Origin: Candidatus Shapirobacteria bacterium
Lineage (GTDB): Bacteria; Patescibacteriota; Microgenomatia; UBA12405
Reading direction: 5' to 3'
DNA: 64,000 nt
Assembly: GCA_018062705.1 (NCBI GenBank)
Contig: JAGORQ010000001.1
Span: 21,624-85,623 of the forward strand
A program made the translations under genes and the position numbers. Below, in pieces: positions 21,535-45,698 of this stretch. The notes below the pieces were generated by a model that did not search any database, had not been told where the DNA came from, and saw only the letters and a program-made list of their open reading frames with translations. The number at the start of each line of letters is the position of its first letter. Positions within the stretch are counted from its first letter, which is position 1.

Positions 21535-21573
21535 TAGATTTAAGATTTAAGATGTATGATTTAAGAATAGAAC
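21535..21573. repeat. Family D element (TAGATTTAAGATTTAAGATGTATGATTTAAGAATAGAAC) between the RR stop and the HK start
   Basis: Shares more than 80% identity with copies at 23821, 24551, 32913, 39432 and 45654. Confidence 0.6.
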
Positions 21574-21588
21574 ATCAACAATCAAATA

Positions 21589-22599
21589 ATGTTTGAGAAA
21601 ACGAGACTAAAATTAACCGGCTGGTACTTGATGATTATTATGGTGGTGTCATTATCTTTTTCGGGCGTAATTTATAGAATTGTAACTCAAGAAATAGATA
21701 GATTTGCTCAGGCGCAACGATCAAGAACCGAAAGAAGGATGATGGTGTTTCCCGGAGGACCTACCGTGGTGTTTTTGGATACTGATTTGGTAGCAGAGAC
21801 AAAAAAGAGATTAGTAATTGAACTAATGTCGGTCAATGTACTTGTATTGATAATTTCTGGATGGTTAGCTTATTTGTTGTCTGGTAAGACATTGAAGCCA
21901 ATTCAGGAAATGGTGGAGGAACAAAATAGATTTATTTCTGATGCGTCACATGAACTTAAAACTCCCCTAACCTCCCTAAAAACGGCAATGGAAGTGAGTT
22001 TGCGCGATAAAAATTTTTCTTTAAACGAAGCAAAAGAGCAAATAAAGGAAAATATTGAAGAGGTAAATAAATTACAATCACTGTCGGAGGGGTTGTTGGA
22101 GTTATCAAGATTTGAACAACCAAAACAAATTAATGATTTGGAAAAAATAGTGTTGCCTAAATCAATTGCCAGTGTGGTTAAAACTTTGAAACCAATTGCC
22201 ACAAAAAAAGAAGTGAAAATAATTAACTTAATAAAAGGTGGTGGTGAAATAAAAGGCAACGAGGCGGAACTGAACAAGCTATGGACAATATTAATTGAAA
22301 ACGCGATTAAATATACTAATAATACTGGCGAAGTGAAATTGGAATTGGGTGAGACCAAAAATCATTGGCAAGTAATTATCAGTGATAATGGTGTGGGAAT
22401 CGCTCCAGCGGATGTGCCACATATTTTTGATCGATTTTATCGGGCGGACAGTGCCAGAACCAAAGCAGGAAATGATGGCTACGGACTAGGGCTAGCAATT
22501 GCTAAAAAAATAATTGAATCACACAATGCTAAAGTAGAAGTGCAAAGTGAAATTAATAAAGGTACCAGCTTTAAGCTGACATTCAGGAAAGAGATTTAA
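21589..22599 (+). CDS. Sensor histidine kinase (2 TM, HisKA, HATPase_c)
   Basis: H-box SHELKTPL and the N, G1, G2 boxes (DNGVGI, GYGLGLAI). Confidence 0.85.
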   Translation: MFEKTRLKLTGWYLMIIMVVSLSFSGVIYRIVTQEIDRFAQAQRSRTERRMMVFPGGPTVVFLDTDLVAETKKRLVIELMSVNVLVLIISGWLAYLLSGKTLKPIQEMVEEQNRFISDASHELKTPLTSLKTAMEVSLRDKNFSLNEAKEQIKENIEEVNKLQSLSEGLLELSRFEQPKQINDLEKIVLPKSIASVVKTLKPIATKKEVKIINLIKGGGEIKGNEAELNKLWTILIENAIKYTNNTGEVKLELGETKNHWQVIISDNGVGIAPADVPHIFDRFYRADSARTKAGNDGYGLGLAIAKKIIESHNAKVEVQSEINKGTSFKLTFRKEI

Positions 22600-22608
22600 A
22601 TTACCACC

Positions 22609-23817
22609 ATGAAAACAAAGGTTAAATATCTAATAATATTTTTGATAGGAGTTGGCGGTTGGTTAATTTATGCCAATTTGTTTAAAAATAAAACAGCTAC
22701 TGTCAGTTATCAAACAGCGGTGGCGGAAAAAGGAACACTGATAACCACATTATCTGGATCGGGACAAATTAGTAGTGTGAATAATCGAGCAGTAACCACA
22801 TCAACTTCGGGAGTAGTATCAAAAGTTTATGTCAAAAACGGACAAAAAGTAATAGTTGGTACAGTGGTAGCATCGGTTGACCTGGATATGACTGGAAGAC
22901 AAGCTCGAGATTCGGCCTACACTAGCTATTTGAGCGCCAAAAATACACTGGAGACGACAAAAAATAGTTTGTTGACATTACAAAGCACCCTGGCTACGGC
23001 TTATGATAAATTTCACAACGATGCCGGGGCTAGAGGTTTGGCGACAGACGATGTGACTTATGTTAACCAATACAATGCCTATCAATCAGCACAATTTAAT
23101 GTAAATAATTTTGTAAATCAACAAAAAATAGCTGAACAGCAAGTGGCTAATGCTTGGAGCAACTACCAACAAGCAAGTAATTTGATCTATGCACCGATTT
23201 CCGGAGTAATTAGTGGACTATCACTGAAACCTGGGATGGTCATAAGTGGTGGCACGACTGGTTTAAAAGTGGCCAATATTACGACTAGTGCTACACCAAC
23301 AGTAACAGTTAATCTGACTGAGGTAGATATTCCCAAGTTGACTGTAGGCAATAAAGCCACAATAACCTTGGATGCTTTGGCGGAGAAATCGTTTACCGGG
23401 ACGGTGGTGGCAATTGATAAATTGGGGTCGGTGTCGTCTGGGGTAGTTAATTATCCAGTAGTCATTCAGCTTGACAGCGTGTCGGAAGAAGTGTTCCCAA
23501 ACATGTCTGCCAGCGCCAAAATTATTACGAGTGTCAAAGACAATGTGATTTTGGTAGCGTCAACTGCTGTTAAAAAAACTAACGGGGTAGCAACTATCCA
23601 AGTGATGAAAAATGGTAAGCCAGTAAATATAGATGTGGAAGTTGGTGGAAATAATGATACTCAAACTGAAATAATTTCCGGAATTATTGAAGGCGATTTG
23701 GTAGTGACCTCGTCAACTAGTGCCTCAAAAGCCACAGGCACATCTACGTCGACTTCGGTTTTTGGTGGAAGTAATAGAGGTTTTGGGGGTGCTGGCGCGG
23801 TTAGAGTGGGGAGGTAA
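22609..23817 (+). CDS. HlyD/MacA-family periplasmic adaptor subunit
   Basis: N-terminal TM, coiled-coil, lipoyl and beta-barrel regions typical of membrane-fusion proteins. Sits in an operon with the ABC ATPase and permease. Confidence 0.7.
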   Translation: MKTKVKYLIIFLIGVGGWLIYANLFKNKTATVSYQTAVAEKGTLITTLSGSGQISSVNNRAVTTSTSGVVSKVYVKNGQKVIVGTVVASVDLDMTGRQARDSAYTSYLSAKNTLETTKNSLLTLQSTLATAYDKFHNDAGARGLATDDVTYVNQYNAYQSAQFNVNNFVNQQKIAEQQVANAWSNYQQASNLIYAPISGVISGLSLKPGMVISGGTTGLKVANITTSATPTVTVNLTEVDIPKLTVGNKATITLDALAEKSFTGTVVAIDKLGSVSSGVVNYPVVIQLDSVSEEVFPNMSASAKIITSVKDNVILVASTAVKKTNGVATIQVMKNGKPVNIDVEVGGNNDTQTEIISGIIEGDLVVTSSTSASKATGTSTSTSVFGGSNRGFGGAGAVRVGR

Positions 23818-23820
23818 AAA

Positions 23821-23877
23821 TAGATTTAAGAAATAAGATTTAAGATTCTTGCTGAAGCAAACAAGTATGAATAAGAC
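23821..23877. repeat. Family D element upstream of and overlapping the ABC ATPase start
   Basis: tagatttaagaaataagatttaagattcttgc...aagtatgaataagacaa. Confidence 0.55.
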
Positions 23878-24571
23878 AATAAAAAAAATAGTAATTGAGA
23901 CGAGGAATTTGTCGAAGGTGTATACCGTCGGAGATGTGAAGACGGTGGCACTCGATAAGGTGTCGTTTAACATTGAGCAAGGTGAATTTGTGGCGATAAT
24001 GGGACCATCTGGTTCGGGCAAATCAACTTTGATGCATATTATTGGAGCTCTGGACAAACCAACTGGCGGTCAATATATCTTGGATGGAAGTAATGTAGAA
24101 AATCTGAGTGATGATGAGCTGGCGGAAATTAGAAATAAAAAAATTGGGTTTATTTTTCAGGCGTTTAATTTATTACCCAGGACCACCACAATGAAAAATG
24201 TGATGCTACCAATGAAATATGCTGGGTTGTCGGAAGAAAAACAAAAAGCAACAGCAGAAAAGTTTTTGAAAATGGTGGGATTAGGAGACAGACTAAAACA
24301 TACCAGTAATCAGTTGTCCGGAGGACAACAACAGCGAGTGGCAATTGCTCGGGCACTAGTACTGGACCCGGCAATTATTTTGGCAGATGAGCCAACAGGA
24401 AATATTGCTTCGGCACAGGCGGATGAAATAATGGAGATTTTTGAAAAATTAAATGATGAAGGTCATACCATTGTGATGATTACTCACGAACCAGATATAG
24501 CCAATCATGCTAAAAGGATTATTCATATAAAGGATGGGCAAATATACAAAGATTTAAGAAATAAGATTTAA
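23867..24571 (+). CDS. ABC transporter ATP-binding protein (MacB/LolD-like)
   Basis: Walker A (GPSGSGKST), signature LSGGQQQRV, Walker B (ILADEPTGN). The last 8 codons are encoded by family D copy D3. Confidence 0.85.
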
Positions 24572-24590
24572 GATGTATGAATAAAACAAA
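24551..24590. repeat. Family D element that supplies the C-terminus (KDLRNKI) and TAA stop of the ABC ATPase and precedes the permease ATG
   Basis: gatttaagaaataagatttaagatgtatgaataaaacaaa. Confidence 0.55.
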
Positions 24591-24593
24591 CAC

Positions 24594-25820
24594 ATGAAAG
24601 AATTAATTAATCAATTTGTTGAAAGTTTGGGGACACTGACTCTGAATAAAACCAGGACAGGATTGGCGATTTTGGGAATTGTGATCGGTATTGGTAGTGT
24701 GATTGCGCTGGTGTCGCTCGGTGAGGCGACCCAAAAATCAATCCAAAATCAGATTGAGTCCTTGGGGTCAAACTTATTGACGGTTAATCCTGGCGCAGTC
24801 AGTTCGGGAGGAGTGCGGGGGGCACAGGGTGGTGTGACTACCTTAACTTTGGAAGATGCTAAAGCGATAATTACATCGAGCACTGTGACGACAATTAAAA
24901 CAGTGTCGCCAGAGTTTTCCAGAAGAACCCAGGTGGTAACAACCGGTAAAAATACCAACACCCAAATAATTGGAGTTAGCCCGGAATATGCGAATGTACA
25001 TAAACTGTCGGTGGAAACGGGTAGCTTTGTGTCGCAAACAGAAGTTGACGGCATGAGTAAGGTGGCAGTACTCGGGCCACAGGTTGTAACTGATTTGTTT
25101 GGAGATGGCGCTAATCCAGTTGGTCAGACAATAAGAATCAGTGGACAAACTTTTACGGTTATTGGAGTGACAGTGTCAAAAGGAGGCAGTGGTTTTCAAA
25201 ATCAAGACGATATTATTTACGTACCAATAACTACCGCCCAAAAACAATTGTTTGGAGTAAATTATTTGAGCTCAATTGGACTAGAAGCGAAAACGGCCGA
25301 GGTGATGACCCAAGCCCAAGACGAGGTAGGTTACTTATTATTATCGAGACATAAATTTAATGATCCGAGTCAGGCTGATTTTTCAATTTTTTCCCAACAG
25401 GATATTTTGAATACCGCTTCATCAACTACCGGGACGTTTACTTCGTTATTGTCGGGAATAGCGGCCATTTCATTACTAGTAGGCGGAATTGGGATAATGA
25501 ATATAATGCTAGTGACCGTGACGGAGAGAACTAGAGAAATTGGACTGCGTAAAGCCTTGGGAGCCAAAAAGAAAGTGATAACCAGTCAATTTTTGACTGA
25601 GTCAGTTATTCTGACATTTACTGGCGGAATTATTGGAGTGGCAATGGGGATACTGGCATCGTACATAATTTCACTCTTAACCGGCTCGTTATTTGTAGTA
25701 TCGGTAAATTCGATAGTGTTGGCATTTGGAGTGTCGGCGGGAATTGGAGTAGTGTTTGGCTGGTACCCAGCCCAAAAAGCTGCCAATATGCAACCGATAG
25801 AAGCGTTGAGATATGAATAG
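24594..25820 (+). CDS. ABC transporter permease, MacB/FtsX-like (4 TM with a large periplasmic domain)
   Basis: MacB_PCD-like periplasmic region and the FtsX C-terminal TM bundle. Confidence 0.8.
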   Translation: MKELINQFVESLGTLTLNKTRTGLAILGIVIGIGSVIALVSLGEATQKSIQNQIESLGSNLLTVNPGAVSSGGVRGAQGGVTTLTLEDAKAIITSSTVTTIKTVSPEFSRRTQVVTTGKNTNTQIIGVSPEYANVHKLSVETGSFVSQTEVDGMSKVAVLGPQVVTDLFGDGANPVGQTIRISGQTFTVIGVTVSKGGSGFQNQDDIIYVPITTAQKQLFGVNYLSSIGLEAKTAEVMTQAQDEVGYLLLSRHKFNDPSQADFSIFSQQDILNTASSTTGTFTSLLSGIAAISLLVGGIGIMNIMLVTVTERTREIGLRKALGAKKKVITSQFLTESVILTFTGGIIGVAMGILASYIISLLTGSLFVVSVNSIVLAFGVSAGIGVVFGWYPAQKAANMQPIEALRYE

Positions 25821-25911
25821 TTTAAATCCCAAACTCTAAACTCTAAATTCTAAAAAATTCAGTAAAAGTTAAGTAATAATTTATAAAATATATTAATAGT
25901 TATTAAATATT

Positions 25912-25931
25912 CCGCCTGCGGCGGGCTTTTT
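25912..25931 (+). terminator. GC hairpin (CCGCCTGCGGCGG) plus T-run abutting the next ATG
   Basis: tccgcctgcggcgggcttttt ATG, read directly from the sequence. Confidence 0.35.
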
Positions 25932-26384
25932 ATGAAACAAAATCAAATTATTTCCTTAGTTTTAGTAGCGGTTATTTTTGGTGCAGGTGGGTTTTTTGGA
26001 GGGATGAAATATCAACAATCAAAAGCCCCCAATTTTAATTTTGGAGACCGAGCAGGTATGGTGGGTCAATTTGGAAATAGACAAGGTGGTGGTATGGGAC
26101 AAAACGGAACTCAAGCGAGAAGAATGGGTGGGCAAACCTATGGCGATATATTGTCTTTAGATGACAAAACGATGACAGTAAAAATGGCAGATGGTAGCTC
26201 AAAAATAATTTTGTTATCTGACTCAACTTCATTTAATAAAGAGGCGACTGGTACTAAAACAGATTTAAAAGTTGGTGATAAGGTGGGTGTATTTGGTCAA
26301 AGCAATACCGATGGCTCAATCAGTGCCCAAATGGTGCAAATAAACCCAGTGATGCGACAACAAAGCCTTGTGCCGACGAAATAA
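25932..26384 (+). CDS. Hypothetical secreted Gly/Gln-rich protein
   Basis: N-terminal TM/signal (IISLVLVAVIFGAGGFFGG) and a G/Q-rich low-complexity region. Confidence 0.4.
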   Translation: MKQNQIISLVLVAVIFGAGGFFGGMKYQQSKAPNFNFGDRAGMVGQFGNRQGGGMGQNGTQARRMGGQTYGDILSLDDKTMTVKMADGSSKIILLSDSTSFNKEATGTKTDLKVGDKVGVFGQSNTDGSISAQMVQINPVMRQQSLVPTK

Positions 26385-26539
26385 GACCAAAAAAAATCCG
26401 TTAAAACGGATTCAGAAAAGGAAGGAATGAAAAAACAGTAGAGCAAAAAAATTTAAAATATAGGGGGGTATAAATTAAATTAAAGGGGGGATTTTTGGTC
26501 TGACTGTTTTTTCGTTTTTGGTTTGGGTTGGTTGTCTTG

Positions 26540-26760
26540 TGTGTTGTTGGTCACCCCCTTTGGGTGACCGCCGTGAGGACTCTTCCTATTCGCACCCATT
26601 TCTGTGCTACTTATGGAGAGGATACCTATTGGTAAAACTATAGGAAGAGTCCTAATTCCGGTCTCAGACGTTTCTGACTACACGAACAATACAAACGAAC
26701 AAACGTCTGAACTAATAAATGGTGGAGTCCACCGCTTGTTAGTTCAGACGTTACCTAAAC
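26540..26760 (+). ncRNA. Candidate structured non-coding RNA of unknown family, in a 477-nt non-coding gap
   Basis: Stacked hairpins: ggtcaccccctttgggtgacc; a 15-bp inverted repeat gaggactcttcctat / ataggaagagtccta; tcagacgtttctga; and a 13-bp stem acgtctgaactaa / ttagttcagacgt enclosing ggtggagtccacc. A TATAAAT box lies about 70 nt upstream. No conserved RNase P, tmRNA or SRP motifs were seen. Confidence 0.25.
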
Positions 26761-26861
26761 CAAAATTTTTAAAGAACTGATCGAATGGGTCAATGCAGAC
26801 ATTGAAATTCGATTGATGGGGTATTGTAATACCAAAAATATAGGCTGTCAAGACAGAGTTT

Positions 26862-27233
26862 TTATGGCAGATAAATCAATTTTAAAGCAGACTGAAGTGC
26901 TGTTTTGTGCTCGTCGGTGGCACCAAGTGACAATTCCCATTTTGGGGTCATAAACATATGGGTAATAAATCCAGAGCCGTGGACTCGTCGATAAAAATCT
27001 TCAAAATCTGAATGGGTTGCACCAGATTTTTTAATTGCTTCATAGACATCATCACTAAAAATGTCATTTTGAGAAAAAATGGGGAAATGGTGTAAACGAC
27101 GAAGATTTTTGGTGTATTTGTCTAGCCGTTTCAAATTTTTGGGGATATTTTCTGGTCCTTCGGAAGAAATGATGCCAGAAACATAACCAATTTGAGTAAT
27201 ACCTTGTTGACGCATTTTTAAAAAAAGAACCAA
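26862..27233 (-). CDS. Hypothetical protein (possibly a DUF4406/nucleoside deoxyribosyltransferase-like fold)
   Basis: 123-aa ORF. The family assignment is weak. Confidence 0.35.
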   Translation of the reverse strand: MVLFLKMRQQGITQIGYVSGIISSEGPENIPKNLKRLDKYTKNLRRLHHFPIFSQNDIFSDDVYEAIKKSGATHSDFEDFYRRVHGSGFITHMFMTPKWELSLGATDEHKTALQSALKLIYLP

Positions 27234-27295
27234 AAGACCGTCGGCGATTTCATCTAAACTCCTGGCACCTTGGAGGTGCTTTTGTATTATATGTT

Positions 27296-27619
27296 TTATG
27301 GAAAAGTATAAATTATTTTTTCAAAATCAACAACGCGGTCTTTGGCGGTGAGTTTAATCCCCTCTTTTTTATACAAGGCGAGTCTAGTTTTTCGATGTTT
27401 ATCATCTAACCATACCTTGCCACCGGAATAGACAATCCGATGAAAAGGAATTTTGTCTACATCGGGAGAACGACTGAGAATGGTGGTGATCATTTGAGAA
27501 AGTATTGGGTGGCCACCGGCGGCCACTGTCAACAAACCATAAGTGGTTACCCGACCAGGAGGTATGGTGAGGGCTAGGGCACAAACTTTTTTGGAAAATT
27601 CACCGGGAGCGAGCTTCAT
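27296..27619 (-). CDS. Alkyltransferase-like (ATL) MGMT-family protein lacking the active-site cysteine
   Basis: MGMT-C fold with PFHRIV in place of the PCHRV motif (Cys to Phe), as in ATL proteins. Confidence 0.55.
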   Translation of the reverse strand: MKLAPGEFSKKVCALALTIPPGRVTTYGLLTVAAGGHPILSQMITTILSRSPDVDKIPFHRIVYSGGKVWLDDKHRKTRLALYKKEGIKLTAKDRVVDFEKIIYTFP

Positions 27620-27677
27620 AAATTATTTCGGGCGCCAGCAACCTGCCTACCGGCAGGCAGGGTGTCGCCCCTACGGA

Positions 27678-28154
27678 TTAGTATAATGCCATTGTGTATG
27701 AATATAAATATAACGGTGAAGTAATTTTTGATTTTATAAGGGCGACACTATCTGATAGTTGTTTAAGGTTTTTTTGTTGCTCTTTTAACCGACGTTGATT
27801 CAATACATAACCTTTGACTAAATATTGTTTTAGGGTTTTAGTTGCCCAGATACGAAATTGGGTGGCCTTGACGGAATTTATGCGATAACCGACCGAAATT
27901 ATCAAGTCTAAGCTATAAGCTTTGACTGGTTTATCAGAATTTGCAATGTTCCATTTTAGAACATTGCTTTTTTCAACCAATTCGTTTGATTTAAAAATAT
28001 TATTTATGTGCTTGGTGACTGCAGGTCGTCGAGTACCGAATAAATCAGCTATTTGTGACTGTGTTAACCAGATGTTATTTTTTTCGATTTTAGTTTTTAG
28101 TTTAACTTCACCGTTAATGGATTTGTATATTGCAATCTGATTATTATTTTTCAT
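27678..28154 (-). CDS. RhuM-family (virulence protein RhuM-like) protein
   Basis: Conserved RhuM region (WLTQSQIADLFGTRRPAVTKHINNIF...FRIWATKTLKQYLVKGY). Start taken at the internal MKNNNQIAIY. Confidence 0.55.
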   Translation of the reverse strand: MKNNNQIAIYKSINGEVKLKTKIEKNNIWLTQSQIADLFGTRRPAVTKHINNIFKSNELVEKSNVLKWNIANSDKPVKAYSLDLIISVGYRINSVKATQFRIWATKTLKQYLVKGYVLNQRRLKEQQKNLKQLSDSVALIKSKITSPLYLYSYTMALY

Positions 28155-29503: not shown

Positions 29504-30397
29504 ATCGTGGTGGAAGATTACTTTGCCAAGAGCTAGAGTCATGGGACGGTTTTTCATGGAGTCAAGAATTATTTTATTTAAATTATCGCGGTACTCAGCG
29601 GTGTCGGCAGACTCAAAATCGGGAATTAGTTCGGGGGAATTTTTTTGAAGATACTCGTAAAGTCGGGTTTTGATTTTGGAACTTTGATTGAGATGTTCAA
29701 ACCAAACTTCGGAAACTCCGGCATGCTGGAGCGCATCGAGCAATTCATTAATGGCTTTTTTATTATTGACAAAATGTGGCAGAATTGGACCGACAAAGGC
29801 GTAAGTGGAAACACCATTATCGTGTAATTGTTTTAGTGCTTCAATGCGAGCAGAAATAGGTGGTGCTAGAGGTTCGAGAAAGCGAGCCACTTGGTCGTCG
29901 AGTGTGGTGACAGTAAAACCAACTTGAACTTTTTTTAATTTTTTTAAAATATCAATATCTTGAGTAACCAAGGGTGATTTTGTTTGAATGCCAATTGCTC
30001 CTTCATAACCAAAATCAACAAAAACTTGAAGACATTGGCGGGTGATATGGTATTTGGCTTCGAGACCGGTGTAGGGGTCGGTGACCGAACTAAAAAAGAT
30101 AAAACCAAAATCTTTTGATGATTTAATTTTATTTTGGTGTGTAGAGACGCCAGGCCTGGCGTCTCTACGAGACAGCTTGTTTAATTCATTTTTTAATAAT
30201 TCAGGCGCGTTGGTTTTGACATCTAAATAACTCCCCCACTCTTCATCGGGGTGATGCCAGCGGGCTATTTGGGCGGCATAGCAGTACGTGCAACCGAGCT
30301 GGCAACCGCCGTAGGAATTAACTACCCAATCGGCACCAGGCAGACCGGATTTGGTGAGGATTGTTTTGGCGGTAATTTCGTTAATTTTGAGGAGCAT
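29486..30397 (-). CDS. Radical SAM protein of the spore-photoproduct-lyase/DNA-photolyase-like (SplB) type, carrying an in-frame family B palindrome insert
   Basis: The CxxxCxxC cluster (CQLGCTYC) near the N-terminus and the overall architecture fit SplB-like rSAM. Residues SRRDARPGVST are encoded by the palindrome at 30141..30168. Confidence 0.55.
   Translation of the reverse strand: MLLKINEITAKTILTKSGLPGADWVVNSYGGCQLGCTYCYAAQIARWHHPDEEWGSYLDVKTNAPELLKNELNKLSRRDARPGVSTHQNKIKSSKDFGFIFFSSVTDPYTGLEAKYHITRQCLQVFVDFGYEGAIGIQTKSPLVTQDIDILKKLKKVQVGFTVTTLDDQVARFLEPLAPPISARIEALKQLHDNGVSTYAFVGPILPHFVNNKKAINELLDALQHAGVSEVWFEHLNQSSKIKTRLYEYLQKNSPELIPDFESADTAEYRDNLNKIILDSMKNRPMTLALGKVIFHHDLPKKR
30141..30168. 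repeat. Family B palindrome (GTAGAGACGCCAGGCCTGGCGTCTCTAC) in-frame inside the radical SAM gene
   Basis: Perfect 28-nt palindrome. The minus-strand reading frame passes through it without a stop. Confidence 0.6.
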
Positions 30398-32912: not shown

Positions 32913-32955
32913 TAGATTTAAGATTTAAGATGTAAGATTTATGAATAAGACAAAG
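32913..32955. repeat. Family D element immediately after the deacetylase stop
   Basis: tagatttaagatttaagatgtaagatttatgaataagacaaag. Confidence 0.55.
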
Positions 32956-32970
32956 ATGTTAAAATAAATT

Positions 32971-38169: not shown

Positions 38170-38198
38170 ATATTTAAAGTATAGCACCACCATACTTT

Positions 38199-38346
38199 CG
38201 TCATTGCGATCCGCCAGTTGGCGGAGTGGCAATCCCAACGAGATTGCTTCGTCCCCTTCGGCTACGCTCAGGGTCCTCGCAATGACCCTTCGACTTCGCT
38301 CACAATCCTCGTTATAACCCTTCGACTTCGCTCAGGGTTATAACGT
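38199..38346. repeat. Family C composite element in a divergent promoter region; includes a duplicated CTTCGACTTCGCTCA(G/C) submodule
   Basis: gtcattgcga...ggcaatcccaacgagattgcttcg...cctcgcaatgacc, then two copies of cttcgacttcgctca. Confidence 0.5.
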
Positions 38347-38351
38347 ATTAT

Positions 38352-39614
38352 ATGGTTATGAAAATATGGTGGATTTTGCTAATTTGTCTGGGAATTAGAC
38401 TTATAGGAATTAATCAATCGTTGTGGCTAGATGAGGCAATATCGGCCAATGTAGCCAAGAATTTTTCCTACCAAGAAATACTGACAAAATTTAGTCCGGG
38501 AGATTTTCACCCGCCAGGATATTATCTGATGTTGAAAACTTGGGGAAGTATTTTTGGTTATTCGGAAATTAGCTTAAGACTAACGTCGGTAATATTTAGT
38601 TTAATAACGATTTATGTGGTTTATTTACTGGGAGGATCGGCTGGTGCAATGCTGGTTGGATTTAATCCCCTGTTAGTGTATTACTCGCAAGAAGTGAGAA
38701 TGTACTCGATGGTGACCATGTGGCTAACTTTGGCGATCTATTTTTTGATAAAAGAAAAATATTGGCTAGTGGGACTATTTTTTGGATTGGCGTTTGGGAC
38801 GTTTTACGGGTCGGTATTTTTGATGGTGGCGGTGTTTATCTATTTAATTGTTAATAAAAAATATAAACCGGCAGGAATCGTAACAATAGTTCCATTGATA
38901 TTCTTGCTAATTATATGGCCATTGATGAGTCAACAACTTCAAAATTCAAAGGTGATGTTGGCCACAGTGTCGGGCTGGAGCCTTGTGCTAGGAAAAGTAA
39001 ATCTGAAAAATTTATTGTTGATTCCGATGAAATTTACGTCGGGGAGAATCAGCTTTTATCCAAAGATTATTTATTATGTTTTGGCGGGAGGATGGTCTAT
39101 ATTTGTGTTTTTTAAAGTGCTTAGTGCTAAGTTCAAAGTGCAAAGCAAAATCTATAGTTTTTTGTTTTGGACTACGTTGGCAATCGGGGTGGTGTTTTCG
39201 ATATTTACCCCTATGTTTGAGTATTTTAGATTTTTGTACTTGATACCAATTATGGCGCTAGCAATAGGGAAAAATAAACTGATAGCCGGAGGGTTTTTGG
39301 CGTGGAGTTTGGTGTATGTACTAAACCCGAGTTTTTATCGAGAAGATTGGAAGAGTGTGGTGGCAGAGTTATCGAAAGACCAACCAGTTTACATGATCAA
39401 ATCATTTGAAGATCCGGTGAGTTATTACAATCTAGATTTAAGATATAAGACGTATGATTTAAGAATAGAACCGAAAGAAAATAGAATAACGGTAATACCC
39501 TATGGTGAGGAGATACATGGAGTGAACCATGTTAAATTGATGGAAAAACAGGGTTATAAAATGGTTGACCAAAAAAATTATCGAGGATTGGTGAGTGAAT
39601 CTTGGAGTCGGTGA
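38352..39614 (+). CDS. GT-C fold glycosyltransferase (GT39/GT83, PMT/ArnT-like) membrane protein
   Basis: DE motif in the first periplasmic loop (LWLDEAISANV) and about 11 TM helices. A family D repeat lies in-frame near the C-terminus. Confidence 0.6.
   Translation: MVMKIWWILLICLGIRLIGINQSLWLDEAISANVAKNFSYQEILTKFSPGDFHPPGYYLMLKTWGSIFGYSEISLRLTSVIFSLITIYVVYLLGGSAGAMLVGFNPLLVYYSQEVRMYSMVTMWLTLAIYFLIKEKYWLVGLFFGLAFGTFYGSVFLMVAVFIYLIVNKKYKPAGIVTIVPLIFLLIIWPLMSQQLQNSKVMLATVSGWSLVLGKVNLKNLLLIPMKFTSGRISFYPKIIYYVLAGGWSIFVFFKVLSAKFKVQSKIYSFLFWTTLAIGVVFSIFTPMFEYFRFLYLIPIMALAIGKNKLIAGGFLAWSLVYVLNPSFYREDWKSVVAELSKDQPVYMIKSFEDPVSYYNLDLRYKTYDLRIEPKENRITVIPYGEEIHGVNHVKLMEKQGYKMVDQKNYRGLVSESWSR
39432..39472. 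repeat. Family D element in-frame inside the GT39 gene (encodes LDLRYKTYDLRIEP)
   Basis: tagatttaagatataagacgtatgatttaagaatagaacc. Confidence 0.55.
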
Positions 39615-40369
39615 ATTATTGGCAGGGTAGCTTGGTAACCAAAGTTGATCATTTCTTCAATAGACTTTTCTGACTTAACTTGGGTAATTAGATTTTCTGG
39701 CTCGACGATAAAATCAGCATCTTCTAAATTTAATTTAGTTAGCTGATAAACGGAACAGTAAAATGCTTTAATGAGATCGTTGAGCTTACCTAGATTTTCG
39801 AGGTTGTTCATCGGAAAAACGTGACTAAGCAAATTAACCGCCAAGACAATATCACCATGTTCACGCGCAACTGATACAGGTACTGGTGAGGTAATTCCGC
39901 CATCTAATAAGGTGTGGTGGTGATGTTTAACTGATGGCATGATTAACGGGACAGCTACTGAGGCGGAAACTGCTTTGAACAAATTGCCTTCATTTAGAAC
40001 ACAGGGTTCTCCTAAATCAATATTGGTAGCTACGGCAGTAAAGGGAATTTTTAAATTAGCAAAAGTGATATCACCTAACTTTTGCCGGAAGTCGTTTAGT
40101 TTTCGACGATATTCAAGAAAAAATATATATTTTTTTCCGGCTACTTGAAACTTCGTTTGACGATAAAAATTTTCGACGTCATTTATATCGCCATTTATAC
40201 AATAAAGCGAACCAACCAAGGCTCCGGTAGAACAGCCGACAATATGGTCAATTTTAATATTGTTGTCAAGAAGACATTTAATGACTCCAATATGGGCGGC
40301 ACCACGAATACCACCGACACCGAGGGCTAGAGCTAACTTTGGTTTTTTTGGCAATTGATATATTGACAT
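39578..40369 (-). CDS. Patatin-like phospholipase
   Basis: GxGxxG oxyanion motif (GVGGIRGAAHIG) and the GCSTG lipase serine motif. Confidence 0.8.
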   Translation of the reverse strand: MSIYQLPKKPKLALALGVGGIRGAAHIGVIKCLLDNNIKIDHIVGCSTGALVGSLYCINGDINDVENFYRQTKFQVAGKKYIFFLEYRRKLNDFRQKLGDITFANLKIPFTAVATNIDLGEPCVLNEGNLFKAVSASVAVPLIMPSVKHHHHTLLDGGITSPVPVSVAREHGDIVLAVNLLSHVFPMNNLENLGKLNDLIKAFYCSVYQLTKLNLEDADFIVEPENLITQVKSEKSIEEMINFGYQATLPIIHRLQDSLTNPR

Positions 40370-40452
40370 GCTGGCAGTTAATATTTATACTGCTAATTGT
40401 CTTCGATATTATAAAGAAGACAAAACATTATATATTATTTTTAGGAGGATAT

Positions 40453-40866
40453 ATGAGATATCTACCTTTTAAGCCGTTACTAGATTACCGCCCATTTTTT
40501 TGGGATGAAGATGACTGGCAAGAAACAGCCGGAGCATCAGGAATTAATGTTTATATTGATGAAAAAGAAACTGAAGTAACCGTGGAAGCGCCAGTAGCAG
40601 GACTGGAACCAAAGGATGTAAAGGTGACATACCATGACGGGATGTTGCATATTTTCGGATCAAATAGTCAAAAAGATGAAGATAAGAAAAAGGGTCAGGT
40701 AGTGAAAAAGTGGCAAATGGCCACTAGTTTTGACTATGTAACTTCCCTACCCCGACCAATCGATGCCAAATCTGTCGACGCCAAGGTAAAAAACGGTGTA
40801 ATTACCATCAAAGCAAAAGTAGCCGAAGAGTCGAAACCAAAAGAAATTGAGGTTAAGGTTGGTTAA
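40453..40866 (+). CDS. Hsp20/alpha-crystallin small heat-shock protein
   Basis: ACD motifs (VTYHDGMLHIFG...NGVITIKA). An AGGAGG RBS lies upstream of this internal ATG. The track start at 40339 is a hydrophobic upstream extension. Confidence 0.8.
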   Translation: MRYLPFKPLLDYRPFFWDEDDWQETAGASGINVYIDEKETEVTVEAPVAGLEPKDVKVTYHDGMLHIFGSNSQKDEDKKKGQVVKKWQMATSFDYVTSLPRPIDAKSVDAKVKNGVITIKAKVAEESKPKEIEVKVG

Positions 40867-41557
40867 ACATTAAAGACTTCACTTCACCCGGGGATAGTGG
40901 TCGCCACTCCCCGGGTTTTAGTTGGCCTAGACTGATGCGACCGATGGAAATGCGACAGAGATCAATTACAAATAAATTGAGCGAGGCGCAAAGCAGACGG
41001 ATCTGGCGTTTTTTTCCTTGATATAGGGTGATTTTCATTTGAGTGTTGTCAAAGTTGCCAACCGTAGCCTCAACATCAGCCGGAACGCGACGAATTGTTT
41101 GGAGTTTTTCAGCAGTGACTTTGCCCCGAATTGTCACTAAATACGTTTTGGGTAAATGAAATCGAGGGTGGGTTAGCCGAAGGGTCAACTCACCATCGTT
41201 GGTTAAAATTATTAGACCAGATGATTCAAAATCGAGGCGACCAACCGGAAAAACCCGAGGGTTGAGAGGAACATAGTCGAGAACAGTTTTGCGTCCACGA
41301 TCATCACTGGTGCTACTGAGGACGAATTTTGGCTTGTTGAGCAGATAATAGACTAGGGTTGGTCCGCCAGCTGGCGGATGGGGTGGGATTATTTTTTTGT
41401 CGACAATAACTGTATCGACATCAGGGTCAACCTTATCCCCAAGTATGGCTATTTGACCATTAATTTGAATCCGGTGGCTAATGGTAAATTGATCGATTTG
41501 GCGACGGGAGGCGACTCCAAGGGAGGCGAGGTATTTATTTAGTCTGATTAATGGCAT
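40853..41557 (-). CDS. Pseudouridine synthase, RsuA/RluB family, with an S4 domain
   Basis: S4 N-terminus (LNKYLASLGVASRRQ) and the catalytic region (PVGRLDFESSGLIILTNDG). Confidence 0.8.
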   Translation of the reverse strand: MPLIRLNKYLASLGVASRRQIDQFTISHRIQINGQIAILGDKVDPDVDTVIVDKKIIPPHPPAGGPTLVYYLLNKPKFVLSSTSDDRGRKTVLDYVPLNPRVFPVGRLDFESSGLIILTNDGELTLRLTHPRFHLPKTYLVTIRGKVTAEKLQTIRRVPADVEATVGNFDNTQMKITLYQGKKRQIRLLCASLNLFVIDLCRISIGRISLGQLKPGEWRPLSPGEVKSLMFNQP

Positions 41558-41564
41558 GTGTTTT

Positions 41565-41598
41565 TAATTACTAATTACTAATTACTAATTACTAATTT
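41565..41598. repeat. (TTACTAAT)n microsatellite in the divergent promoter region between the rluB-like gene and the nuclease gene
   Basis: taattactaattactaattactaattactaattt. Confidence 0.4.
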
Positions 41599-41604
41599 GA
41601 AGAA

Positions 41605-42495
41605 ATGAGATATGATAGTTTTATGGCTAAAGACAAGTATAGCGCAATCTGGGTGAGTCATTCTTCGATAGGGAGTTTTTTGGAATGTCCGAGAGGTTAT
41701 TATTTGCGAAACATTTATAAAGATCCAAAATCGGGACATAAAATAAAAATTGTTAGCCCACCTTTGGCGTTGGGAACAGCGGTGCACGAGGTAATTGAGA
41801 GCTTGTCGAATATTCGGACCGACGAGCGATTTAAAGAATCGCTTTTGGAAAAATACGAGAGGGCCTGGAAAAAAGTGTCGGGTAAGCTAGGGGGATTTTT
41901 TGATGCCGACACTGAATATAAATATAAAATGCGGGGTCAGGAAATGATTGAGCGGGTGATGAAGCACCCTGGACCAGTGGCTGAAAAAGCAGTCAAGATT
42001 AATATGGAACTCCCCTATTATTGGCTGTCGGAAGAAGACAATATTATCTTGTGTGGCAAAATTGACTGGCTAAAATATATTGAAAAAACTGATTCAGTGG
42101 AAATAGTTGATTTTAAAACTAGCAAGAATGAAGAGGGTGAGGATAGTCTTCAATTACCAATCTACAATCTTCTTGTACATAACTGTCAGAAGAGAAAGGT
42201 GGATGGGGCGTGGTATTGGTACTTGGGTATGAGCGATGAATTGGTGAAAAAAGAATTACCAGATATTGTGGAAGCCGAAAAAAAGATATTAAAAATTGCT
42301 AAGCAAATGAAATTGGCCAGACAGCTGGAAAGGTTTGTCTGTCCATCTGGCACTGAGGGTTGCCGAGCCTGCCGACCTTATGAAATGGTGCTAAATGGTA
42401 GCGCAGAATTTGTGGGCAACGACGAATATCGAGCGGATGTGTATGTGATCAATAAACCTACGATGACTGAGGTAGAGGATGCGAGGGTACTTTAG
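41605..42495 (+). CDS. PD-(D/E)XK nuclease with a Cas4/RecB-like 4-Cys cluster
   Basis: One N-terminal Cys (FLECPRGYY), a D...E-V-D-F-K core (EIVDFKTSK), and three C-terminal Cys (CPSGTEGCRACRPY). No CRISPR array or cas genes are nearby. Confidence 0.55.
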   Translation: MRYDSFMAKDKYSAIWVSHSSIGSFLECPRGYYLRNIYKDPKSGHKIKIVSPPLALGTAVHEVIESLSNIRTDERFKESLLEKYERAWKKVSGKLGGFFDADTEYKYKMRGQEMIERVMKHPGPVAEKAVKINMELPYYWLSEEDNIILCGKIDWLKYIEKTDSVEIVDFKTSKNEEGEDSLQLPIYNLLVHNCQKRKVDGAWYWYLGMSDELVKKELPDIVEAEKKILKIAKQMKLARQLERFVCPSGTEGCRACRPYEMVLNGSAEFVGNDEYRADVYVINKPTMTEVEDARVL

Positions 42496-42513
42496 GTTTT
42501 GTATAATACCCAA

Positions 42514-42900
42514 ATGGCGAAGATTTTTGTAATACACCCAGAATGTATTAATATAGATTTAAGACTCAATTTACATTTACAATACAGACCACACCAGCTT
42601 GATGTTTTATCTCAAATTAAAACCATAACAAAAAATGCAAGGAACCTAGTTGTGATAGATGATTATGATTTAGAAAATACCCCAAAAGATGGTGATGTAT
42701 ATTTATTGGAAGAAGGTCCAACTCGACTGGTAGCAGGCTGTATAGTCAGAAAAGATGAGGCAATATTCATTGGTGCTTACACTGAAAAATGTGTTTCAGA
42801 AGCTGCCAATGTCGCAAGACGTGCTGGTGCAATCGTAACTATTAATAGAAAGCTAACTGTGCCACTAGATCCTAGATTATATTCTGAAATATTAAAATAG
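42514..42900 (+). CDS. Small isochorismatase-family-like (cysteine hydrolase-like) protein
   Basis: IGAYTEKCVSEAANVARRAGAIVTI resembles the isochorismatase catalytic-Cys block, but the protein is short (~128 aa). Confidence 0.3.
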   Translation: MAKIFVIHPECINIDLRLNLHLQYRPHQLDVLSQIKTITKNARNLVVIDDYDLENTPKDGDVYLLEEGPTRLVAGCIVRKDEAIFIGAYTEKCVSEAANVARRAGAIVTINRKLTVPLDPRLYSEILK

Positions 42901-43494
42901 TCCTAGTTGTGGTGCTTCAACTTTTTTGGGATAGGAAAAGTCGACCGGAAAGGTGCGGATAGTGTTCCATTTGTCCATGAATTTTAGTTGCTTGTTTTTG
43001 AGGCCAAAATCGTAGACTTCCTTGGTAACCTGGACATCAGCTTCGCAATATTTTTTTAATTTGGCAAGCGATTCGGCCGAGTGCTCCGCCCAATACTTAA
43101 CAGCGTTGAGACCATGATCGATTTTGGTGTGGCCGAGGGTTTCGGCGGCCAAATTCCCCAGACCAATTCTAAAACCGAGTGATAATTTAATCGGATCCAT
43201 TAGGTCAAAATGATTTAATTTTTTAAAATCATAAGGAGCTAGCGGAGCCATGGCCGGCACATCAAAATGAAGAGAATTGAAACCAATTATCCGATCGACA
43301 TTGGTAAATATTGGCCACATTTTGGGAAAATCTTCTTCCCAAAAACTCATCATTTGTCCATCGATTTCATTTAGATTATCGTCGAGAGTGCGTTTGAAAA
43401 CAGAGATAATGGAGATACCCAAATCGGCCGGATCGCCAGTGGCGATATCGTCAAATATTTTTTTGGTTTCGATGTCAAAAAAAACTTCAATCAT
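42892..43494 (-). CDS. DEDDh-type 3'-5' exonuclease (DnaQ-like fold)
   Basis: FDIET (Exo I), HFDVP (Exo II), and H...D in the C-terminal block. Confidence 0.5.
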   Translation of the reverse strand: MIEVFFDIETKKIFDDIATGDPADLGISIISVFKRTLDDNLNEIDGQMMSFWEEDFPKMWPIFTNVDRIIGFNSLHFDVPAMAPLAPYDFKKLNHFDLMDPIKLSLGFRIGLGNLAAETLGHTKIDHGLNAVKYWAEHSAESLAKLKKYCEADVQVTKEVYDFGLKNKQLKFMDKWNTIRTFPVDFSYPKKVEAPQLGLF

Positions 43495-43496
43495 AA

Positions 43497-43549
43497 ATCC
43501 CTCTGTCCTGCGGTCGCCGGACCTCTCCCTTTGAAGAAAGGGAGAAATA
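43497..43549. repeat. Family E two-hairpin element immediately 5' of the exonuclease ATG
   Basis: aatccctctgtc-[ctgcggtcgccggac]-ctctccctttgaagaaagggagaaataac. Confidence 0.55.
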
Positions 43550-43575
43550 ACTAAATACGTAGAGAGAAGATTATA

Positions 43576-44139
43576 TTAGAAACCGAGATCTTGTTCAACA
43601 AAGAGGATATGAGTGCGGGAGGCAACAGGTTCTTTATTGAGAATTAAAAGCTTATTAACACCACTGTGAACACCATAAGCTTTCAAGGCCCTAGCATCTT
43701 CAAGAGGTAGTACAACATCATAAATTCTCTTGAGAGCTGCGGTCAAGTCACCACTAATTTTTTTGGTGCTGACTACAAAAATAACTTTTTTGGCGCCAAA
43801 AACATACGCCGGAAGTTGGCTACCAGTAGCTGAGGCAATGACTAATTCGCCAGTTTCAGTGACCGCATGAACACTACCAATAGCAATATCTGGCAGGGAG
43901 GCTAAGTGGCGGGCTTCAGCATCGCCGGCATAAAACTTGGGTTTGATGGCATCATATTTGCCCGACTCATTAATTTCTTGGGAAATTCCTAACTGGTCGA
44001 GAGTGGTGGAAGACATGGTCATAACTTGACTACCTTCGGGAATTAACTCATGAATTTTTTTGATGACATCATCACTACTAACACTAACCGACACCTCAAA
44101 ACCATTATTTTTGAGATTTGAAATTAAATCTTGATTCAT
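43576..44139 (-). CDS. LUD-domain protein (YkgG/LutC family, DUF162)
   Basis: Pattern of conserved Gly-rich segments (IAIGSVHAVTETGELVIASATGS). Confidence 0.5.
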   Translation of the reverse strand: MNQDLISNLKNNGFEVSVSVSSDDVIKKIHELIPEGSQVMTMSSTTLDQLGISQEINESGKYDAIKPKFYAGDAEARHLASLPDIAIGSVHAVTETGELVIASATGSQLPAYVFGAKKVIFVVSTKKISGDLTAALKRIYDVVLPLEDARALKAYGVHSGVNKLLILNKEPVASRTHILFVEQDLGF

Positions 44140-44191
44140 TTTTTATAATAAATTTTAACTACTACAACTGTAGTATTAGTTAAGACAAATG

Positions 44192-45415
44192 TCAAGAGAT
44201 GTTGCCGAAGCCAATAGCGTCATGAACAGCTTCGCCCAGGCCCAGCATTTTGGCTGGAGTGAGAACGAAACTACCGTATTTTTGGGTAACTTTATCAATG
44301 GCTAAATTTAGATTGATATGTTTTTTGATGTCACCAAATAGATCGAGTTGGAGGCTATTGTTTTGCGATAAATTGAAAAAAGTGACGGCTAAATTGGCCA
44401 CCGGAGAATGGTAAGGGGAGGATGACATAATTTTGTAAGCTCGACGATAGAGGTGGTAATCATCGGAAACTGGTTCGGGGTAAATAGCGCCGTGATGCCA
44501 AAACTGACGGTCGCGATAGAGTAGTGAAATATGGACACCACTGGCGGTATAACCATGACTTCTGAGGCGAAGACCGGCTTTGACAACTAGTTTGTGGAGA
44601 ATGGGTGAGAGTTCCTCGGGGGTACTAAGTGGTTTGGGGAGTGAATACATATGACCAAAACTTTTGCGGGCAAAATCAACATTATCAATTTCTAGGCCTC
44701 GAAGACGAAGATACCAATAATAGCCGTTAATGGAGTTAAAGGCATGATGGAGAATGTGGATTGGGGCATTATAAAAATCCATAACTGAAAAAATACCTGA
44801 GTGGTGAAGGTGGGTGGCGTTAGCTCGGGCAATACCAGTCAGATCGGTGAGTTCAAGTTTTTGATAAATTTCTAAATAGTTTTTGGAATTTATTTCATCT
44901 AGACCATCGGGCTTGTGAAGATTACTAGCAGTTTTGGCCAAAAAACGGTTTGGACCAATACCAACCGAGACAGTTAGCCAATCCCCGATTTCACTTTTTA
45001 TTTTTGACTTTATTTCTCGACCTATAAGGTGCAGGCCAATTTTGAGGCCGGGAAAATTTTGAAAATTAAGAGAAAATTCATCAATAGATTTGGCGGTATA
45101 GTCGGCAGTATAGTAGCTTAATAATTTGTGGAGTTTATGGTGGACAAAACGATATTTGTCGGGATCGGAAGTGAGAACAATTAAGTTGGGACAAAGCTTT
45201 TTGGCCTCAAAGATGCGAAAACCGGTTTTGATGCCGAGGGCTTTGGCCTCGACTGAAGGAGCAAGAATGCAACCGCGAGGACTGTCGTAGGCGGCCACAG
45301 CGATCGGCCGACCACGGAGGAGTGGATTAGCCTGTTGCTCGATCCGAGCAAAACAGGAATTTAAATCGACGTGCATAAAAGTCGATTGACATTGATTAAA
45401 ATCGAGATTAATCAT
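44192..45415 (-). CDS. dinB: DNA polymerase IV (Y-family)
   Basis: MHVDLNSCFARIEQ N-terminus and the ImpB/UmuC core motifs. Confidence 0.9.
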   Translation of the reverse strand: MINLDFNQCQSTFMHVDLNSCFARIEQQANPLLRGRPIAVAAYDSPRGCILAPSVEAKALGIKTGFRIFEAKKLCPNLIVLTSDPDKYRFVHHKLHKLLSYYTADYTAKSIDEFSLNFQNFPGLKIGLHLIGREIKSKIKSEIGDWLTVSVGIGPNRFLAKTASNLHKPDGLDEINSKNYLEIYQKLELTDLTGIARANATHLHHSGIFSVMDFYNAPIHILHHAFNSINGYYWYLRLRGLEIDNVDFARKSFGHMYSLPKPLSTPEELSPILHKLVVKAGLRLRSHGYTASGVHISLLYRDRQFWHHGAIYPEPVSDDYHLYRRAYKIMSSSPYHSPVANLAVTFFNLSQNNSLQLDLFGDIKKHINLNLAIDKVTQKYGSFVLTPAKMLGLGEAVHDAIGFGNIS

Positions 45416-45653
45416 TGGAGACTTCTTGGAGTTCCCAAAATAAATTGTCAGTGTTGAGACTTAACCGAAAAAAAGTCTGATTGGCAGTGACAGAGAAAAT
45501 GTGGAACAGAGTCTGCCCGCGACGGATAGTATGGTGGAGACCGATTTGAGAAACGGTGTAATCTACTCCACGCCAAAAAAATTTACGCGGACCAACCCGA
45601 TTGGTGGCGGAGTCGAAACTAGAGATGACAGAGATGGGAATTTTTAACTGCAT
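45408..45653 (-). CDS. Small hypothetical protein overlapping the dinB start by 8 nt
   Basis: 81-aa ORF translationally coupled to dinB. Confidence 0.35.
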   Translation of the reverse strand: MQLKIPISVISSFDSATNRVGPRKFFWRGVDYTVSQIGLHHTIRRGQTLFHIFSVTANQTFFRLSLNTDNLFWELQEVSND

Positions 45654-45698
45654 GATTTAAGAAGTAAGATTTAAGATGTATGAATAAAACAAAAAAAC
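45654..45698. repeat. Family D element abutting the start codon of the minus-strand small gene
   Basis: gatttaagaagtaagatttaagatgtatgaataaaacaaaaaaac. Confidence 0.55.

Follow-up and report, generated by a model that had tools for sequence, protein, structure and literature searches.

The question raised by a 64,000-nt stretch of a Candidatus Shapirobacteria genome (contig JAGORQ010000001.1; the whole stretch is called the window below) is why six short, near-identical elements, here named family D, recur in it, three of them between the cistrons of a single operon. A first-pass annotation had described them as ~40-nt elements at gene junctions and had proposed an intercistronic RNA-processing or translation-coupling element or, alternatively, a small MITE (a miniature transposable element with inverted repeats). 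The DNA examined here comprised the window and 6 kb more, about 70 kb in total, from one genome and one strain; no family-D copies were found in the additional 6 kb. The ATPase and GT39 proteins encoded in the window matched those of a Candidatus Shapirobacteria metagenome-assembled genome with 100% identity. Family D proved to be a Candidatus Shapirobacteria case of the already known, functionally unexplained intergenic heptamer repeats. The explanation preferred here, held with about even confidence, is that it represents a small set of dispersed heptanucleotide cassettes of the STRR/TAACTGA class, tolerated or weakly co-opted by the host and not a conserved regulatory signal.

Anatomy of the family D cassette

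All six copies described earlier were recovered at their places (Table 1). The scan with the six 37-nt cores returned exactly six sites with at least 27/37 identical positions, all on the plus strand, register-shifted self-hits aside. The alignment was gapless over 37 nt, with the exception of an 18-nt mini-hairpin inserted in copy 2 (c2), and pairwise identity among the copies ranged from 28 to 36 of 37 positions. They could be ordered in a chain of identity, c5-c1 (35/37), c1-c4 (33/37), c4-c3 (32/37) and c3-c6 (36/37). The window contains the word GATTTAAGA 14 times, each time on the plus strand, where 1.35 occurrences would be expected.

The repeat is real, but it is no 40-nt unit with a hidden structure; the 37 nt consist of five degenerate heptamers followed by AC. 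The heptamer consensus is GAnnTAn, with GATTTAA, GATGTAT and GAATAAR as units, and position by position the order is GATTTAA (H1), GA(T/A)(T/A/G)TAA (H2), GA(T/C)(G/T)TA(T/A) (H3), GAT(T/G)TA(A/T) (H4) and GAATA(A/G)(A/G) (H5). Tandem Repeats Finder gave a period of 7 with 3.4-4.4 copies for each family-D copy for which it reported a repeat, and the alignment shows five units head to tail, which makes the copies tandem heptamer arrays. The period of 7 had been overlooked in the first-pass annotation, which as a result did not connect the copies with the intergenic heptamer repeats already known. The two tail subtypes distinguished there were reproduced (c1 and c5 versus c2, c3, c4 and c6), and in these single-strain data the two subfamilies are relatable by a register shift of one unit (shifted self-hits 27-28/37). 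Stop codons in all three frames were considered as a general feature of the cassette and rejected, c1 and c5 each keeping one open frame and that of c5 being apparently translated.

Of the 70 kb examined, a stretch of 24 kb contains all six copies (P about 0.02), which share one direct orientation on the G-rich strand. Period-7 arrays were found eight times in the window, compared with zero to two arrays for each other period from 4 to 12 at equal stringency, and their units were GATTTAA, TAATTAC, AAACTCT, AAATGAC and AAGTGCT. One array of the sister family D5 (TAATTAC) fills an entire divergent spacer and must consequently contain both promoters.

The RNA of the cassette showed no sign of structure. 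Single-sequence folds of the copies had z-scores between -1.4 and +0.4, no better than shuffles, the consensus structure and covariation check with RNAalifold predicted zero pairs, and Rfam at the gathering threshold gave 0 matches. A structured RNA or an Rfam family was rejected on these three results, and with it went the support for an intercistronic processing structure, for which a covariation analysis had been suggested. The search for a stem-loop of the repetitive extragenic palindromic (REP) or bacterial interspersed mosaic element (BIME) type found no stem in family D, and no relation of family D to tRNA or tmRNA was found. A phage origin was likewise rejected, since all 20 of 20 viral matches to a 16-mer were ordinary non-repeat sequence with no array.

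The window is about 88% coding. In such DNA non-coding repeats end up at gene junctions almost by definition, and the junction placement of family D is for this reason weak evidence for function. A TANNNT box was present 5-9 nt 5' of the start codon in 56% of 66 genes, compared with 11% of random positions, and a match of at least 5/6 to TATAAT in 39% compared with 3.5%. A core resembling the Shine-Dalgarno (SD) sequence was detected in 3/66 window genes. Judging from these signals, the host appears to use mostly leaderless mRNAs, with the SD almost absent.

Table 1. Positions of family D, of the operon and predicted mini-ORFs (open reading frames) associated with it, and of other repeats in the window. 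RR, response regulator; HK, histidine kinase; MFP, membrane fusion protein; CDS, coding sequence.
Feature	Position	Strand	Context
Copy 1 (c1)	21537..21573	+	RR/HK junction, 55-nt gap; GATTTAA GATTTAA GATGTAT GATTTAA GAATAGA AC; TAA-A-TA just before
Copy 2 (c2)	23823..23877	+	HlyD(MFP)/ATPase junction, 49-nt gap
Insertion in c2	23848-23865	+	18-nt mini-hairpin CTTGCTGAAGCAAACAAG
Copy 3 (c3)	24551..24587	+	ATPase 3' end and ATPase/permease junction; codes for (K)DLRNKI and TAA
Copy 4 (c4)	32915..32951	+	between polysaccharide deacetylase stop and 47-aa DUF3096 gene
Copy 5 (c5)	39435..39471	+	within GT39 CDS (38352-39614), in frame, DLRYKTYDLRIEP
Copy 6 (c6)	45654..45690	+	divergent spacer; adjoins ATG (complement 45651-45653) of minus-strand 81-aa gene
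Five-gene operon	20877..25820	+	RR 20877-21533; HK 21589-22599; MFP/HlyD 22609-23817; MacB-type ATPase 23867-24571; permease 24594-25820
Mini-ORF MYDLRIEHQQSNNV (stop)	21552..21596	+	starts in c1; stop ends 7 nt past first base of HK ATG
Mini-ORF MNKTNT (stop)	24577..24597	+	starts in c3 tail; TGA overlaps permease ATG (ATGA)
Mini-ORF MNKTKMLK (stop)	32941..32967	+	starts in c4 tail; ends 3 nt before DUF3096 ATG
TAATTAC x5	41559..41602	+	sister family D5; fills whole 47-nt divergent spacer, pseudouridine synthase/PDDEXK
TAATTAC x4-5, other copies	4420-4460, 5981-6018	direct	three copies in total
AAACTCT array	25824..25856	+	directly 3' of permease stop
D3 copies	7490-7516, 15534-15560, 30143-30169, 46476-46502, 46781-46807, 53497-53523		

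Junction copies, the GT39 copy and their counterparts in relatives

Pfam identified the genes of the operon as encoding an RR, an HK, an HlyD-type MFP, a MacB-type ATPase and a permease, and other genes near the repeats as encoding a polysaccharide deacetylase, DUF3096, an RNA recognition motif (RRM) protein and an IS200-like Y1 transposase. With these identities the placement of copies at the RR/HK, HlyD/ATPase and ATPase/permease junctions was confirmed, and family D occupies three of the four internal junctions of the operon. Placement at junctions holds for c1-c4 but not for c5, which lies inside the GT39 CDS; c6 is located in a divergent spacer, 335 nt from the RRM-protein gene (46025-46372) downstream. 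Four of the six copies (four of the five non-coding ones) are forward and 0-19 nt 5' of a co-directional start.

The c3 copy supplies the stop codon of the ATPase gene (TAA, 24569-24571), as had been noticed before, and its end lies 6 nt 5' of the permease ATG. The tail of c2, TATGAATAAGAC, holds the ATPase start codon (23867; protein MNKT...), and the gene call starts there. A mechanical reading of the sequence for ORFs gave predicted mini-ORFs in c1, c3 and c4, whose ends fall between -4 and +7 nt relative to the next ATG. No SD-like core was found 5' of the HK, ATPase, permease and DUF3096 genes. The DUF3096 gene has its own -10-like box (TAAAAT) 5 nt 5' of the ATG; no such box was found at the usual 5-9-nt distance at c1-c3, which are operon-internal, and the scan of the operon for sigma-70 consensus sites showed no enrichment (19 sites vs. 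16.1 +/- 3.5 expected).

Relatives L036, L037 and L056 have kept the operon, and the deacetylase-DUF3096-GT39-HSP20 neighbourhood is also conserved in relatives. At the RR/HK junction TAA and ATG are separated by 4 nt in L036 and the junction measures 2 nt in L056; the MFP and ATPase genes are separated by 2 nt in L036 and by 11 nt in L037; the ATPase and permease genes are 2 nt apart in L036 and overlap by 8 nt in L037; and the deacetylase TAA is followed after 6 nt by the DUF3096 ATG in both L039 and L056. As the junctions in relatives are only 2-11 nt long or overlapping, the four junction copies are derived, lineage-specific insertions. No period-7 arrays were found in 69 kb of relatives L036-L039. 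In the closest relative, L035 (ATPase identity 84%), the MFP/ATPase junction holds a different heptamer array, TTTCAAT x4 (L035 255-375 and 1060-1180 were viewed).

The insertion of c3 affected the upstream protein as well. Nearly all of at least 120 ATPase homologues listed have a tail of 10-20 aa past the DG+I motif, commonly ...KKEVLKND, a tail seen in many Shapirobacteria. The window ATPase lacks it and ends with KDLRNKI and the stop inside c3. In L037 the KKEV codons are AAGGAGGT and provide an SD 9 nt 5' of the permease ATG (L037 10700-10760), and the tail may be conserved because these codons double as the SD of the overlapping permease gene. By this comparison of sequences, c3 cut the ATPase short and took away the tail that bears the permease SD in one relative.

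Elements of another kind were seen in two relatives. In L035 the ATPase frame continues into a GC-rich hairpin element and so ends in ...SPPLSPPRGRGK. In L037 a GC-rich hairpin insertion, GTCCCCGCTACGCGGGGAC, lies at the RR/HK junction (7500-7625), with start regions that resemble each other on its two sides (ATGTTCAAAA... and ATGTTTAAAC...), which looks like a duplication of the HK start.

The c5 copy differs from the others in being coding. GT39 homologues align full-length through its region, and the L038 orthologue (63% aa identity) has there the DNA GAT TCA AGA ATT AAG ATA TAT GAT TTG AGA ATA AAA CCG, which translates as DSRIKIYDLRIKP (recorded also as GATTCAAGAATTAAGATATATGATTTGAGAATAAAAC). 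This tract is identical to the intergenic c1 at 32/37 positions and was the sole match of at least 27/37 in 71 kb of relatives. A subclade shares the motif D-x-R-I-x-x-x-D-x-R-I-K-P (also given as D-x-R-I-K-x-x-D-x-R-I-K-P). Because the tract is conserved, in frame and shared with the orthologue, c5 is, as judged from the alignments, native GT39 sequence that has been vertically inherited and is presumably translated. It breaks the conserved I-x-I pattern exactly at the positions that match family D. Copy c5 may have seeded family D, or it may have been partly converted by an array.

A second period-7 tract (AGTGCTT AGTGCTA AGTTCAA AGTGCAA) was observed in the GT39 CDS at 39116-39145, in a variable loop that is about 6 residues longer in the window protein than in most homologues.

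Known heptamer repeats and competing explanations

Three groups of heptamer repeats offer comparisons for family D. The heptanucleotide repeats of Calothrix PCC7601 are presumably those known as STRR. Many bacterial genomes contain heptamer repeats in excess, for which neither a function nor a generating mechanism has been established (PMC4692102, PMC4679880), and no description of GATKTAW arrays or heptamer repeats in Patescibacteria was found in the literature. The closest parallel is provided by the TAACTGA repeats of Beggiatoaceae, cyanobacteria and some Bacteroidetes, for which translational regulation has been proposed and the function is unproven (MacGregor 2015, PMC4679880). Both are short tandem sets of 7-nt units (2-6 copies for TAACTGA) with stop codons in the unit, mostly intergenic, often forward and a few nucleotides from an SD-less start, with occasional copies in ORFs; both occur sporadically, with close relatives lacking them, and with other heptamers mixed in. 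Unlike TAACTGA, the family-D unit GATKTAW is degenerate and not perfect, belongs to the phylum Patescibacteria, and its copies are clustered on one strand and share both the order of the variant units and the non-repeat end GAATARRAC. From this shared order and end it follows that the family-D copies are copies of one another.

Cyanobacterial heptanucleotides include three in Calothrix PCC7601 and the GGGGAYT arrays of Nostoc (PMC4692102) as well as TTTTGAA arrays, also of Nostoc (bioRxiv 10.1101/2022.06.06.494920). Like family D, they are dispersed intergenic tandems with several unit families per genome, many lie near starts or promoters, and their binding partner is unidentified. Arrays in cyanobacteria often have more units, as many as 26 or above, and are more nearly perfect, and some are G-rich and quadruplex-forming, whereas family D is AT-rich and nearly free of C, has five units and has no capacity for quadruplexes. 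The GGGAATC repeats of Xanthomonas (PMC4692102) resemble family D as heptamers of mostly about four units, intergenic and variable in length and sequence at one junction between close species, and inverted pairs are known both for them and for the GATKTAW arrays of Bacteroidota loci. They differ in being G-rich with quadruplex potential, in belonging to another phylum and in having no link to cistron junctions.

Occurrences of the cassette elsewhere were sought with patterns chosen by the authors, on which the cross-phylum searches were conditioned. The 19-mer TAAGATTTAAGATGTATGA was found at 33 loci in GTDB representative genomes, belonging to Bacteroidota (Ferruginibacter, Chitinophagaceae, Saprospiraceae), Patescibacteria (Moranii-, Paceibacterota, Saccharibacteria) and few others. 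By composition alone, 5-30 occurrences could arise in about 600 Gb (a rough estimate), and the evidential weight lies in the array context of the matches and not in their number. Nearly all of these loci lie in heptamer arrays, many with an inverted partner array and thus a potential hairpin. The metagenome search with the tail pattern revealed five-unit arrays ending in GAATAARAC in L043, L044, L047, L048 and L054. A polar array end conserved across phyla is not claimed, as the end was largely set by the search pattern and about one quarter of the 19-mer matches continue with A. Two-unit versions were natural stop/start junctions in ribosomal operons of other organisms (L6/L18 and L29/S17). 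The arrays elsewhere showed no consistent orientation towards genes, being located after a co-oriented stop, at an opposite-strand start or distant from genes; at the Patescibacteria loci the G-containing strand of the array was the locally G-rich strand in 8/10 cases. In the sequences compared, the distribution appears sporadic, absent from L036-L039 and present in other Patescibacteria and Bacteroidota.

The preferred explanation of dispersed, tolerated heptanucleotide cassettes implies that they arise and spread at the DNA level. The route would be 7-nt slippage combined with copy-and-paste over short distances, by way of template switching or gene conversion, from one AT-rich heptamer-like tract to another, and it would account for the uniform direct orientation and the clustering of the six copies in 24 kb. 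The GT39 tract c5 could be the seed of the family or a partner in the exchange. Cassettes would survive only where they are harmless, at gene 3' ends and in intercistronic spacers. In a leaderless-type, SD-poor host internal cistrons presumably rely on termination-reinitiation, and a cassette may be tolerated at such junctions because it ends reading frames (being stop-rich), stays single-stranded and offers an AUG-AAU-AAR start. The AUG of the cassette would become the start of the next gene (c2) or open a mini-ORF ending at the next AUG (c1, c3 and c4), so that the coupling would outlast the insertion, as far as three or four cases allow such a view.

Several points weigh against this explanation. 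The picture of copy number, orientation and position comes from only 70 kb of one genome. Two Logan contigs (SRR11088367) were identical to the window and gave no sign of ongoing 7-nt slippage. Free slippage accounts less well for the fixed number of five units and the same order of variants than would a discrete element or a site bound by a protein. The copy-and-paste route is hypothetical, and a tract of 37 nt is on the short side for conversion that depends on RecA. A neutral process does not explain why GATKTAW units recur in distant phyla. The agreement of mini-ORF ends with gene starts amounts to three cases, and the downstream genes, the permease gene included, are intact, as would also be predicted from a functional translational element.

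Such an element, regarded here as rather unlikely, would use the AU-rich array RNA as a single-stranded platform, for instance for S1, a cold-shock or an RRM protein, and drive SD-independent internal initiation or reinitiation. The positions of the four forward copies close to co-directional starts fit this role, as do the rarity of SD-like cores in the window, the unstructured RNA, the RRM-protein gene near c6 and the two-unit relatives at ribosomal-operon junctions. So does c3, which replaced the ATPase tail with its SD and left the permease intact. A like role was suggested for the TAACTGA repeats (MacGregor 2015, PMC4679880). A conserved coupling role is disfavoured by the absence of the cassette from the orthologous junctions of all sampled relatives, the closest of which has an unrelated heptamer at one of them, and by the arrays elsewhere, found in either orientation, distant from starts or as hairpins after genes. 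Moreover, c6 lies far from the next co-oriented gene and adjoins a gene on the opposite strand, the gene 3' of c4 has its own -10-like box, and no minus-strand copy was found despite 21 (-,-) vs. 22 (+,+) junctions in the window. The translation coupling proposed earlier is hence compatible with the replaced SD-bearing tail and with mini-ORFs ending near the next ATG, rather than demonstrated by them, and a dedicated translational role may be called possible, which leaves it a rival still in play, as a structured-RNA or processing role and a classical MITE are not.

The locus lies in a leaderless-type, nearly SD-free Patescibacteria genome and offers a natural experiment, as the conserved five-gene operon is found both with cassettes at three junctions and, in relatives, without them. 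Should the downstream genes have remained expressed, the cassette would show a sequence sufficient for the initiation of internal cistrons in such organisms. The arrays are also a warning for annotation, since they yield false C-termini, false mini-ORFs and apparent repeats within real genes.

A broader proposal, considered improbable, is that the five-unit cassettes (family D and TAATTAC) form a discrete, actively propagated element class of SD-poor lineages (some Patescibacteria, Bacteroidota and cyanobacteria). They would be written stop-proximally by an unknown mechanism coupled to the replication strand and used as SD-independent intercistronic modules, consisting of a stop, a spacer free of structure and either a start of the form AUG-AAU-AAR or a relay mini-ORF, which possibly replace SD coupling.

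A miniature mobile element, moved in trans by an unknown enzyme and targeting stop-proximal A-rich DNA in one replication-strand orientation, was given only a slim chance. The near-identical copies with the sharp boundaries (TA)GATTTAAGA ... GAATARRAC, the insertion into formerly tight junctions and the sporadic occurrence among relatives would be expected of it, and the single orientation on the G-rich strand has its parallel in the Patescibacteria loci. Of the MITE suggested in the first-pass annotation, what stood was the dispersal of near-identical units, four of them inserted between a stop and the next co-directional start; what failed were the hallmarks of transposition. No terminal inverted repeats spanning the ends of any copy were found, and as regards target-site duplications the longest words shared by the flanks measured 3-7 nt and were A-rich (shuffle P >=0.06 for every copy). 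Family D is like MITEs and REP/BIME elements in being short, dispersed, non-coding and concentrated between genes, and unlike them in having neither inverted repeats nor hairpins nor target-site duplications; with only 37 nt it is far under known MITE sizes. A gene for an IS200-like Y1 transposase of the RAYT type is present in the window, but it is tied to the D3 hairpins, a REP-like family unrelated to family D. One copy is native coding sequence common to the orthologue, and none of the viral matches contained an array.

Equally improbable was an origin of the intergenic copies as local duplications of the heptamer-like GT39 tract, which would make family D a curiosity of this 24-kb region. 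The vertical inheritance of c5, the resemblance of the L038 tract to c1 and the motif kept in the subclade speak for it, together with the clustering of the copies and the place of c5 at one end of the identity chain. It does not explain why unrelated contigs contain arrays of five of these units that also terminate in GAATAARAC, why GATKTAW arrays are found in many genomes with no link to GT39, or why other heptamer families of the window have no coding counterpart. The departure of c5 from the I-x-I pattern where it matches family D suggests that the array converted the gene and not the reverse.

The omega repressor of inc18 plasmids, a ribbon-helix-helix protein, binds contiguous 7-bp heptads in direct or inverted arrangement at promoters, and family D is built of contiguous 7-bp units too; three of its copies are operon-internal. 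A DNA operator of this kind, with heptads bound by an oligomerising protein, or an UP-like element made of AT-rich promoter tracts was judged very unlikely. The geometry fits, the units being direct here and also inverted in other genomes, c4 lies just 5' of a -10-like box, and the TAATTAC array fills a spacer that needs two promoters. Nostoc heptamer repeats were reported to alter promoter activity (bioRxiv 10.1101/2022.06.06.494920). This is opposed by the lack of a -10-like box at the usual distance at c1-c3 and by the unenriched sigma-70 sites, and no candidate binding protein was identified, no search having been aimed at one.

Least tenable of all was an intercistronic RNA-processing site. 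It would suit the single-stranded, AU-rich RNA and the intercistronic position of three copies, and GAUUUAA presumably resembles the single-stranded R-N-W-U-U context of RNase E-type cleavage. Against it, the junctions of relatives do without the element, no structure or covariation marks out a site, and of the copies one is coding and another is found 5' of a divergent gene.

Other repeats in the window and in distant contigs

The window also contains repeats of other types. Family D3, a REP-like palindrome (AGAGACGY-N6-8-RCGTCTCT-AC(A/G)), is present in six copies, several of which seem to sit in ORFs. One D3 copy is located just beyond the 3' end of the RAYT-type Y1 gene (46498-47040, minus strand) and one within it. 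Three tandem copies of a 32-nt unit (CCCTTCGRCTWCGCTCAGGGT...) lie 5' of the GT39 gene (38254-38349), and single ones are present at 54742-54773 and 57293-57324; the two single units are embedded in a 69-nt repeat (54704-54772 and 57255-57323; families D4, D6 and D14). The hairpin family D8, GACCTCTCCCTTTGAAGAAAGGGAGAA, was detected at 3604-3630, 43520-43546 and 46394-46420 and may represent terminators. The region 4941-5268 consists of about 6 copies of a 42-nt (6 x 7) tandem repeat with 93% identity, which overlaps short ORFs.

The GC skew of the window is about +0.2 from position 1 to ~60 kb, whatever the strand of the genes, and about 0 or negative beyond ~60 kb, where a repetitive ORF of 2822 aa starts.

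Among the contigs found in the searches, L048 (Ga0209211_10012296, 10.8 kb, GC 0.49) represents an extreme heptamer-array genome, with eleven period-7 arrays of about 5-6 units each, built of TCTTCCC, GGAAGAA, AAAGCTC, AAAGTTA and other units. In L003, L023 and L034, from three metagenome-assembled genomes of Moraniibacteriota, a TTAACGA-type array precedes a GATTTAA/GATGTAT array, and this composite stands in differing gene contexts.

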